Shown: positions 3,122 to 26,267 of the stretch, piece by piece
Layout: the number at the start of each line of letters is the position of its first letter
Numbering within the stretch: position 1 is the stretch's first letter
Origin: a virus
Reading direction: 5' to 3' (one strand)
Virus genome (UHGV): UHGV-0140603
DNA length: 39,059 nucleotides
The notes under the pieces: model-generated
Told to the model about the DNA's origin: nothing
What the model saw: only the letters and a program-made list of their open reading frames with translations
Databases searched by the model: none
Position numbers and translations under genes: made by a program

Positions 3122-3419
3122 GTTTAGACCTCGATACTTTGAAAATTTGAACGACGTTACCGCGCGTTTTAATAACCGCAGCAAGCATGACAGCGTTGAT
3201 AATGACCTCAGATAAATCAGCTACCATTGGCGTACGAAACCAGATTGCATAGGCGACGCGAACAGGAATACTTGCCGCAGCAACAATCAGGAAATAAGCA
3301 AGCCACCCACCCCATCTTCGGTGTTGGGATCCGTTACGCCGGAATGTAACAACGCGAACTGCAATGCCAGTACAAATAACTGCATTGGTGATAAGCAAAA
3401 AAAGCTCATGAGTTACCAT
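3111..3419 (-). CDS. Holin or antiholin-like small membrane protein
   Basis: 102 aa, two to three hydrophobic helices, immediately upstream of and overlapping the endolysin start. Confidence 0.5.
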
Positions 3420-24377: not shown

Positions 24378-24584
24378 TTACTGACCAAGCAGCGTTTTAC
24401 CGCTGGTATTAGCGGTTGATGTGTCGCCCTGAGAACCGGTAAGCAGCGTAGAACTACGACCAGCAGCAGCGCGACGGCGACGAGTTTCTTCGTCGCGGGC
24501 ATCAACAACGGCGGCATCCTGCTCCTGTGGTGCTGCCTGAACTTCTGGTGTTGCAGGCACTGATGGTGAGCTACCCATGCACAT
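24378..24584 (-). CDS. Small hypothetical protein upstream of portal
   Basis: 68 aa; RBS context ggagtcattgatATG nearly identical to the portal RBS ggagtcattgaaATG. Confidence 0.45.
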   Translation of the reverse strand: MCMGSSPSVPATPEVQAAPQEQDAAVVDARDEETRRRRAAAGRSSTLLTGSQGDTSTANTSGKTLLGQ

Positions 24585-24674
24585 ATCAATGACTCCGTAC
24601 GCAATTAAATTATTACCAATTTAACCACATATGATTTATTTATCGTAGATAGTTGACATTTAACGCACAAATTA

Positions 24675-24689
24675 TTACCTTTAGGGTAA
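24675..24689. promoter_or_regulatory. Perfect palindrome TTACC-TTTAG-GGTAA
   Basis: Exact 5+5+5 inverted repeat upstream of the 68-aa ORF and portal transcription unit. Confidence 0.5.
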
Positions 24690-24719
24690 GTAAATGGTTC
24701 ATTCCGGTTATTAACCTGA

Positions 24720-25010
24720 CTGGCTTGTCGTTAAATTGAACAGGTGGAGTGAGCTTTTATTTTGAGCAGTACGGCGTATGGCACATGCGCCGATAGCGGT
24801 CTGGATACGTTTAAGGGGCACCCTCCCTTGCTCGGGCAAACGAACCAGGTAGCCGGAATGTGCAAGTCGAGCGGTTTTATTCCGCGCACGGGGATTCACC
24901 ATCCCGGCGATTCGGTGTGACACCTCGGAAGAGACGAGGGTGCAACGATGAGAGCATTTATGGAGCTGCGACAAAGTGTGGCGCCTTAACAGGCTAAGTG
25001 TTCTCAGCGT
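24720..25010 (+). ncRNA. Candidate structured non-coding RNA upstream of the tRNA (unclassified)
   Basis: ~290 nt GC-rich with no convincing ORF; nested complementarities (gcaccctc...gagggtgc, ttgctcgggcaa, ccggaat...attccg). Confidence 0.3.
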
Positions 25011-25011
25011 T

Positions 25012-25088
25012 GTGGCATTAGCTCAGCTGGACAGAGCAACCGCCTTCTAAGCGGTTGGTCGCAGGTTCGAATCCTGCATGCCACGCCA
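25012..25088 (+). tRNA. tRNA-Arg (anticodon UCU)
   Basis: Acceptor stem gtggcat/atgccac, D-arm gctc-agctggaca-gagc, anticodon stem accgc/gcggt with loop cuUCUaa, T-arm gcagg-ttcgaat-cctgc, discriminator G, encoded CCA. Confidence 0.9.
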
Positions 25089-25131
25089 GAATCACGCCTA
25101 AGGACCGTGATGCCAGAAGTTCCAGGTGCTT

Positions 25132-25173
25132 GGCGGTGATGGTTTCCCTTGAAGGACTATCACCGCCCTTTTT
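25132..25173 (+). terminator. Rho-independent terminator after the tRNA
   Basis: 9-bp stem ggcggtgat/atcaccgcc followed by cttttt. Confidence 0.6.
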
Positions 25174-25251
25174 ACAGCAGGACGCCATTGCGATGACTTC
25201 ATGCTGTAAACCCGTTCAGCCACGGAAGGCAGAACTCATTGCTTCCAGTTC

Positions 25252-25274
25252 GCCCACTTCAGTGGGCTTTTTTC
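25252..25274 (+). terminator. Second rho-independent terminator
   Basis: Stem gcccact/agtgggc followed by tttttt. Confidence 0.6.
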
Positions 25275-25287
25275 TAGTGACTACTGA

Positions 25288-25334: not shown

Positions 25335-26267
25335 ATGCTTGACTTCATCCGTGACATTTACGCTTCTTTCCGCCAGACATCTCTTGAAAGAGTGAAGAGT
25401 CCATTTCTTGGACCTTTCGTATTTTCGTGGTTGGGGTTTAACTGGCAGATGCTGGCCGTTATCTTTTTTAGCACAAAAAGTATCGAAGAAAGACTTAGTC
25501 TAATAAATAAAAGTTTCGATGTCGGTGATTATATATTTGCCCCTATATGTACTACTGCTTTGATAGTAATAATCCTCCCACGATTTAATAAATTTATCAC
25601 TTGGGTACAGGATAAACCTAACTCTGACACTGTAGAAATGAGTCTGGCATCTAAAATAAAAATCGCAGAATTACAACAGTCCTTAGCTGAAAATGAAGCA
25701 AGAAAAAAACTTGCCGATAAAAAAGAAGAAAGATTTATTGAGGATGGAATATATTCTCTAAAAGAAGAGTTCAAAAAAACAAAAAATGACCTAGAAAAAA
25801 GAAATGACGATGCAAAAATATTGCTAGAAGAAATACGACGTTTAGAAGGCCAACTAGCAAAGGCAGAGGGTCAATTAAATGTAGAACAAGAGTCAAAATC
25901 TCAGATACAAAAAGAGTTGATTATCGAAAGAGATAACAACCGCACATTAGGCGAACAAATAATAAAATCAACATCAGAATCAAATAAATTCAAAGCAGAA
26001 TTATCTTTATCTAAAGAGTCATATGAAAACACATTCAAAGCATACAATGAATTAAAGAAACGGAATGAAATCACTGAAAACTCAATTAGGCACAATCACA
26101 CTAGATACCCATCATTAATAAAACCAGTAAGTGTTAACGGAGCATATACACTAGAATTTAATAAAGGTGTAGAACTATATTTTGACGAAATCAACAAAAC
26201 ATTAACAACCCAAAAAAAGAGAGACTATAAAACCAATAAGGTTAATGCTCGCAATGATGAATTATAG
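25335..26267 (+). CDS. AT-rich hypothetical protein: hydrophobic N-terminal segments plus long coiled-coil; candidate accessory/defence gene
   Basis: 310 aa; opposite strand to flanking terminase and portal; low GC; several AGA codons; no family recognised. Confidence 0.6.
   Translation: MLDFIRDIYASFRQTSLERVKSPFLGPFVFSWLGFNWQMLAVIFFSTKSIEERLSLINKSFDVGDYIFAPICTTALIVIILPRFNKFITWVQDKPNSDTVEMSLASKIKIAELQQSLAENEARKKLADKKEERFIEDGIYSLKEEFKKTKNDLEKRNDDAKILLEEIRRLEGQLAKAEGQLNVEQESKSQIQKELIIERDNNRTLGEQIIKSTSESNKFKAELSLSKESYENTFKAYNELKKRNEITENSIRHNHTRYPSLIKPVSVNGAYTLEFNKGVELYFDEINKTLTTQKKRDYKTNKVNARNDEL

Follow-up and report, generated by a model that had tools for sequence, protein, structure and literature searches.

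The window analysed here, a 39,059-nt stretch of DNA, belongs to a phiV10-like Uetakevirus (an epsilon15-like podovirus), and its positions 24720-25010 are 97-99% identical by blastn to phages phiv142-3, TL-2011b and phiV10. The region is part of a small plus-strand island with portal-side genes and the large terminase gene on either side, both carried by the minus strand. A putative early promoter can be read from the sequence (-35 TTGACA at 24653-24658, 17-nt spacer, -10 TACCTT at 24676-24681), the -10 element of which is overlapped by a palindromic operator, ATTACCTTTAGGGTAA, at 24674-24689. There follow on the same strand a variable 5' leader (24690-24765; alignment A3) that is optional in relatives and almost absent in SPN1S; a 177-nt core structured RNA (24766-24942), delimited with covariance model R1; a hairpin module, modA (24942-25013), recognized by RNAfold and by the pairing of its arms; and a tRNA-Arg(UCU) (25012-25088; ARAGORN and Rfam, 71.7 bits), the single tRNA of the window and an optional cargo of the unit. 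The RNA unit ends at an intrinsic terminator with a 14-bp stem and a T run that is kept in relatives (25132-25175), and a terminator scan located a second one at 25252-25275. A small conserved hairpin, AAUCACGCCUAAGGACCGUGAU, precedes the first terminator (25091-25112), and the sequence between the two (25176-25250) is conserved and common to L103, L084 and phiv142-3. Given this layout of promoter, operator and terminators, we treat promoter, leader, core, modA, tRNA-Arg and both terminators as one unit. The preliminary description, which had placed an unclassified structured region at 24720-25010 directly 5' of the tRNA on the same strand, was right about coordinates and adjacency.

Transcription presumably starts at the 24653-24681 promoter. 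A consensus promoter scan is silent at this position because the -10 element is weak; the promoter and operator block (24653-24689) is nearly invariant across five Uetakeviruses (alignment A3). Ten copies of the palindrome ATTACC-N5-GGTAA are present in the window (8064, 24674, 25287, 28340, 28358, 32307, 32369, 34700, 35412 and 35474), where 0.34 would be expected; they resemble operators for a phage regulator that, like P1 C1, controls many dispersed promoters, and are found before the RNA unit, before a 310-aa ORF, on the terminase side and in the likely immunity region. The ORF in question (25335-26267, plus strand; PHROG 13369), for which an N-terminal membrane segment and a coiled coil were predicted by eye, lies downstream of the RNA unit and is missing from phiv142-3. 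With the palindrome at 25287 just upstream of it, it is, by this comparison, a variable moron bearing its own putative operator, and it probably has its own promoter.

Taken on the window alone, the observation of a structured RNA was weak since the fold does not stand out from shuffles and has no Rfam match. The minimum free energy of 24720-25010 on the plus strand is -102.2 (shuffles, -96.8 +/- 5.2; z = -1.04), and 32 of 200 shuffled sequences fold as well, so that the dense complementarity reported for the single sequence is not distinctive; nor is the fold of the minus strand significant (z = -0.65 versus shuffles). The helices that had been named (gcaccctc/gagggtgc, ttgc/gcaa and ccggaat/attccg) pair in 43.9% of cells among 74 distinct homologues, the level of shuffled and slid controls. 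The suggested covariance-model search against RNA families was carried out on Rfam 15 at gathering and permissive thresholds and returned nothing in 24550-25010, even at E<=10 with permissive filters. ARAGORN and Rfam give tRNA-Arg only, in agreement with the earlier opinion that the region is not tmRNA, RNase P RNA or a second tRNA. The statement that it holds no plausible ORF was loose, an 87-aa ORF being present on the minus strand and ORFs of 52 and 45 aa on the plus strand.

Comparison of 83 homologues (alignments A1, A2 and A4; 74 distinct sequences model-aligned) upholds the idea of a structured RNA, with a conserved fold that differs from the named helices and is visible by comparison only. 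The three alignments display invariant blocks with variable-length hairpins between them. The core structure, which was built manually and then scored against the alignments, comprises on the plus strand a conserved core helix H1 (24772-24779/24785-24792); H2 (24796-24797 and 24800-24803 with 24846-24849 and 24852-24853); H3 (24807-24810/24840-24843), which encloses a variable insert; an invariant 19-mer, GGUAGCCGGAAUGUGCAAG (24848-24866); a variable hairpin, H4 (about 24868-24888); H5 (24891-24894/24902-24905), the CACC loop of which forms a pseudoknot with a downstream GGUG (24897-24900 with 24914-24917); and H6 (24923-24927/24935-24939), closed by a GAAGAGA loop. When the 74 distinct sequences were aligned by fitting them to the covariance model, 94.3% of cells pair as against 30-45% with slid partners, and 17 pairs were found changed on both sides, in 210 cells, which 0 of 500 shuffles match. 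A set of 43 sequences gave 96.9% (29-49% slid), with 12 pairs and 90 cells double-changed, again with 0 of 500 shuffles. The top pairs in a mutual-information ranking are the manual helices and the pseudoknot, one pair of which is CG in 65 sequences and AU in 9, and an independent MAFFT alignment agrees with the manual core structure. The covariation check proposed earlier therefore bears out a conserved fold with double changes, and not the helices for which it was proposed. Invariant U.G and frequent G.U pairs identify the plus strand as the functional one. Model R1 finds a single copy in the window (24766-24942; 148.5 bits, E 7e-45).

An alternative long-range pairing of the H1 region at the 5' end with the 19-mer comprises 12 pairs that are 97-100% canonical and excludes the H1 form. 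Changes in this helix are limited to those that both folds tolerate; in the absence of double changes it is compatible with the data and unproven. On comparative evidence, positions 24766-25013 are shown to be a member of an undescribed structured-RNA family with a pseudoknotted core of about 160-180 nt, usually followed by modA.

The core is not peculiar to this group of phages. Positions 24771-24958 (up to 25011) were matched by blastn in 92 phage records of unrelated kinds. In Uetakeviruses of Escherichia, Salmonella, Klebsiella and Enterobacter, the core always lies between a portal-side small ORF and the terminase gene, on the opposite strand; lambdoid phages including cdtI, mEp460, Stx2c and some Stx2a phages, Ayreon and 2H10 carry it right downstream of cI, and P1 and P7 between trnI and ban. 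A search of viral contigs for the exact 19-mer yielded at least 120 further loci and at least 106 distinct variants. The core is present in 1837 of 5426 complete E. coli genomes (~34%) and annotated in none of them, with 554 places on plasmids, one of which was inspected and is P1-like. Among species representatives (one genome each), it was found in Enterobacteriaceae genera, in one Erwinia and on two small MAG contigs labelled as other phyla. It is missing from the CPS-53 region upstream of yfdP in E. coli K-12, and from ST64B and SfV. One core per phage is the general rule; the lambdoid rightward operon has no second copy, and model R1 finds none behind PR in cdtI. Locus L026 has two cores in one leftward transcript (oriented 0 and about +720) with a convergent 166-aa ORF between them, the second core having a diverged 19-mer, GCUGGAAGCUGGAAUGUGCAAG. 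A literature search with sequence strings and with P1 and mEp leads found no paper containing the core sequence or describing the element. Judging from its conservation and distribution, the core represents a genuine family of structured RNAs, widespread and unannotated, in what are predicted to be early phage transcripts.

Across these phages the core is consistently placed behind a predicted repressor-controlled early promoter, in Uetakeviruses, in N-less lambdoids (PL) and in P1/P7 (before ban). The order in cdtI (L002) is cI stop, terminator, a strong PL (TTGACA-16-CATAAT; 2921-2948) that carries a palindromic operator, and the core (from about 3000), which begins some 45 nt downstream of the transcript start; beyond it come modA, a module that we call module X, an intrinsic terminator (about 3366-3412), a second modA and yfdP. 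This phage has no N gene, and its YfdP lacks an arginine-rich motif. At several loci, convergent inserts separate PL from the early genes, and its transcripts have to pass through them. P1 has on one strand the C1 operator Op72, trnA, trnT, five modA copies, tciABC, trnI, the core and ban. The phiv142-3 unit consists of core, modA, tRNA and terminators, and that of L103 of core, a modA with a T-arm-like loop, a further modA, an STnc100-like region and two terminators facing a convergent terminase gene; neither has a protein gene downstream of the core. Some lambdoids show a terminator-like hairpin straight after the core, read by eye at places where the terminator scan is silent. The spacing between core and terminator is free, ranging from 15 to >300 nt, with the tRNA or other modules between them.

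Cargo genes, where present, vary; those of Uetakeviruses and P1-like plasmids include genes for three Tad2-like proteins, an N4 gp49/Sf6 gp66-family protein, a ParB-HTH protein and unknowns. Tad2-like genes (Thoeris anti-defence 2, PF11195; L006 3011-3532 and the cargo ORFs of L104 and L042) are carried behind the core by a Klebsiella Uetakevirus, an E. coli relative and a P1-like plasmid. This cassette has the look of a hotspot for anti-defence or accessory genes.

The modA arms, GCAACGAUGAGAGCAUUU and AAGUGUUCUCAGCGUUGU, are separated by a variable two-hairpin loop, and in the window the basal pairs take the first two bases of tRNA-Arg. Folds were computed with RNAfold on 86 unique modules; among 82 unique copies, 13.7 of 15 arm positions pair, compared with 11.5 +/- 0.14 when partners are swapped. 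A reading of the 3' arm as boxA (UGCUCUUU or GCUCUUAC) was weak and was set aside, as it applies to a subset only and the arm covaries with its partner. P1 (L001, OP279344.1) has five modA copies between Op72 and tciA (~825-905, 1270-1365, 1485-1560, 1693-1795 and 1968-2065), all unannotated, with tRNA-Asn and tRNA-Thr interspersed among them; the loops of some carry T-arm-like hairpins or a recurrent GGGYYCAUAWCCCAAUC motif. Loops with tRNA-like T-arm hairpins, such as CUGGUUCAAUUCCAG, GGUCCGUUCGAUUCGGAC and AAAGGUUCGAUUCCUUU, are also found in L007 (SPN1S), L008 and L103, and no complete tRNA is called there. Module X is a conserved structured element (GGCGCGGCGGUAAGYAUGGC ... GUUGACCAURCGCC) with an intrinsic terminator behind it, at ~3246-3345 in cdtI and ~500-620 in P1; in the latter, the Op72 promoter immediately precedes module and terminator. 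Module X may represent either an sRNA gene or an antitermination element.

The nearest comparison is with the put RNA of HK022, which binds the zinc-binding domain of the RNA polymerase beta' subunit and suppresses pausing and termination in cis. Like the core, put is a promoter-proximal structured RNA of the early leftward transcript with terminators downstream, present in N-less lambdoids, highly conserved in sequence and restricted to enterobacterial phages. A put element is recognized by a length of about 70 nt, two stems, an AGGAU apical loop and a conserved 5' ACGAA..GC segment; the core, at about 175 nt, has five or six helices and a pseudoknot, occurs once per phage, extends to P1 and podoviruses, and can stand beside a put-like element. 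Its location resembles that of put in the lambdoid members only (in cdtI, after PL and before a terminator, with no N). Inspection by eye of the window core against putL and putR (taken from L137 and numbered with PMC9378689) revealed no put motif; at one HK022 locus, which ends inside the PL region, neither blastn of the core nor R1 gives a match. Put-like sequences, ACGAAGUAGCCGCC ... GGAUGAUUCG, comparable to the AGGAUGA hairpin of putL and putR, occur just past PL in N-less lambdoids (L134 (SfV) 2010-2100; L136 (Flotzy) 2390-2500; upstream of the core in L024, L091 and L097). The annotated orf33 of SfV sits in the PL-to-yfdP leader, its start immediately following the put-like sequence. 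In SfV and Flotzy, a PL/yfdP operon of the same kind lacks the core and has the put-like sequence at that spot. In L024, L091 and L097, an SfV-type put-like element is followed by the core in the same leader; this tandem indicates that the core is a separate module and not a simple put substitute, and it weakens the argument that put was simply replaced.

A lambda-type nut site, made of boxA and a boxB hairpin and served by an N-like arginine-rich protein, differs in that no N-like gene accompanies the core and a boxA-like modA arm is seen in a subset only. STnc100/PasD (RF02076) has no match in the window; sub-threshold matches of 34-40 bits (threshold 47) are confined to neighbouring modules of SfV, P1 and ST64B, where they cover the modA 3' arm and the following sequence (SfV and P1 checked). 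A preprint from the Storz laboratory links STnc100 to the PasD prophage sRNAs and places Pas sRNAs near Q and lysis genes (bioRxiv 10.64898/2026.05.13.724894). Through these sub-threshold matches, modA-type modules may join a wider set of prophage RNA modules. The core shares with STnc100/PasD the character of an unannotated enterobacterial prophage RNA module; it is a separate and larger one that stands at early promoters rather than at Q or lysis genes. Further likenesses are to the T4 species 1 and 2 RNAs and the P1/P7 C4 precursor, which are non-coding, share a precursor with tRNA and are processed by the host. T4 is virulent and its species 1 and 2 are stable RNAs co-transcribed with tRNAs; the C4 precursor is processed by RNase P, and C4 itself is a small antisense RNA whose target is defined. 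We know of no sequence relation between the core and any of these RNAs. Judged by these comparisons, the core is outside put, the nut site, STnc100/PasD and every Rfam 15 family.

Complementarity of the conserved single-stranded segments to 16S, 23S and 5S rRNA is within shuffled controls and thus points to no target. With 16S rRNA the core has a 10-nt identity (UGCAAGUCGA) that is at about chance level and falls partly within a variable hairpin. CsrA-like GGA motifs and S4 or 16S mimicry were unsupported and were dropped.

The interpretation that we favour, with a probability of about 0.42, is that of a stand-alone early phage RNA acting on a host factor. The unit would be transcribed at once on infection or induction from its repressor-controlled promoter, together with tRNA-Arg, and would end at the two terminators; an RNase P cut at the 5' end of the tRNA would release an RNA of about 320 nt consisting of leader, core and modA. 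This stable early RNA would itself be the product and would bind a conserved enterobacterial component through its invariant segment, candidate partners being RNA polymerase, an RNase or an RNA-directed defence protein. The invariant segment may switch between an exposed state, in the H1 hairpin form, and sequestration in the long-range helix with the 5' end. We infer that the core would act in trans. A stand-alone RNA fits the promoter-RNA-terminator architecture, the units without cargo and the hairpin found right after some lambdoid cores, as well as the single copy per phage, the complex fold and the invariant exposed segment; that the RNA is the product is supported by the operator copy (25287) belonging to the window's 310-aa ORF. 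What speaks against it is the spot of the core in lambdoids, first after PL in the absence of N and with a terminator before the first gene, which is that of a cis-antiterminator; also, the cargo-less units could be decayed remnants, and the comparison with rRNA yielded no target.

That lambdoid spot is at the heart of a rival which we consider possible rather than probable, a cis-acting control of elongation by an analogue of HK022 put or by an rrn-like anti-Rho device. Bound by the nascent core, RNA polymerase would resist pausing and termination, and the early-left genes, ban or long untranslated RNA arrays would be transcribed in full. The cdtI-type arrangement suits such a role, with the core ~45 nt past PL, neither an N gene nor an arginine-rich motif in YfdP, and an intrinsic terminator between the leader and the first early gene, as do the put-like sequences that SfV and Flotzy carry instead of the core, the reading of PL across a convergent insert before the early genes at several loci, and a host range as narrow as that of put. 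The window unit, too, closes with an unusually long 14-bp terminator and a second one, and PMC10325885 reports such a design at the ends of antiterminated operons. Against this, the core has no sequence or motif similarity to putL/putR and is about 2.5x the size of put, is present once per phage with the rightward operon lacking it, and stands in tandem with a put-like element at three loci; moreover, the Uetakevirus units face terminators toward the late operon, with nothing to read into, and the window's cargo ORF has an operator and, probably, a promoter of its own. It is the RNA-only units and the three tandem loci that lead us to favour the stand-alone RNA over a put-like antiterminator.

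The two mutually exclusive and fully compatible pairings of invariant segments, along with the many invariant unpaired bases, the pseudoknot and the downstream terminators, could also be those of a bistable sensor or attenuator leader, in which a ligand or factor would choose, in riboswitch fashion, between the H1 and the long-range form and thereby set cargo transcription. We regard this as improbable, as the distance and sequence between core and terminator vary freely (15 to >300 nt), terminator and antiterminator do not overlap and no association with metabolic genes was found. Still less probable is a mere 5' leader or processing scaffold for the tRNA. The modA hairpin does adjoin the tRNA, overlapping its 5' end by two bases, and at 29 loci tRNA-Arg comes straight after modA. 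A tRNA is near the core at just 46 of 129 loci, however (29 after the core and 17 upstream), 83 of 129 being without one, and the tRNA of P1 lies upstream of the core, the conservation of which goes far beyond the needs of a leader; for want of an adjacent tRNA at most loci, the core is not a tRNA leader, and this reading is largely refuted by the distribution. The earlier proposal of a co-transcribed leader thus survives insofar as the region shares strand and unit with the tRNA, and falls as to a leader specific to tRNA. A decayed protein gene, an alternative raised at the outset, or a DNA-level site (operator, att, pac or origin) has very little to commend it. Some stop-free frame is kept across the core in 66 of 74 homologues, and a 'hypothetical protein' is annotated there in some phage records; the indels are nevertheless not multiples of three (homologue lengths modulo 3, 30/26/18), frame is not conserved, and substitutions in the core are without codon periodicity (variable columns by codon position, 37/35/34), while the strand-specific G.U pairs and compensatory changes point to RNA rather than to a DNA site.

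It is rare for a large structured RNA to combine a pseudoknot with dozens of invariant bases, and those that do so usually serve an important function. This one resides in textbook phages (P1/P7, Stx2-converting phages, cdtI, phiV10 and SPN1S relatives), yet it has neither a name nor an Rfam model. Host take-over, counter-defence and RNA-only control of transcription are candidate roles for the core, given its early position and the rare-codon tRNAs and Tad2-like anti-defence genes in the cassettes where it is often found. We advance only tentatively, and with doubt, that it represents a new class of phage RNA effector, either a second, structurally unrelated RNA-only modifier of RNA polymerase or a decoy directed against a host defence or RNase; were this so, it would be an immediate-early effector of P1, of Stx-converting and other lambdoid phages and of epsilon15-like phages, residing in about a third of E. 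coli genomes. Defining the core would also improve prophage annotation, several records calling spurious 'hypothetical proteins' over it, and P1, with its core between trnI and ban, is experimentally accessible. Lastly, cdtI carries in its rightward operon, at 777-965 of L002 (minus strand), the C4 antisense RNA (68 bits) and isrK (60 bits), which precede a Rha/Ant-like regulator and form a P1/P22-type immI module within a lambdoid phage.
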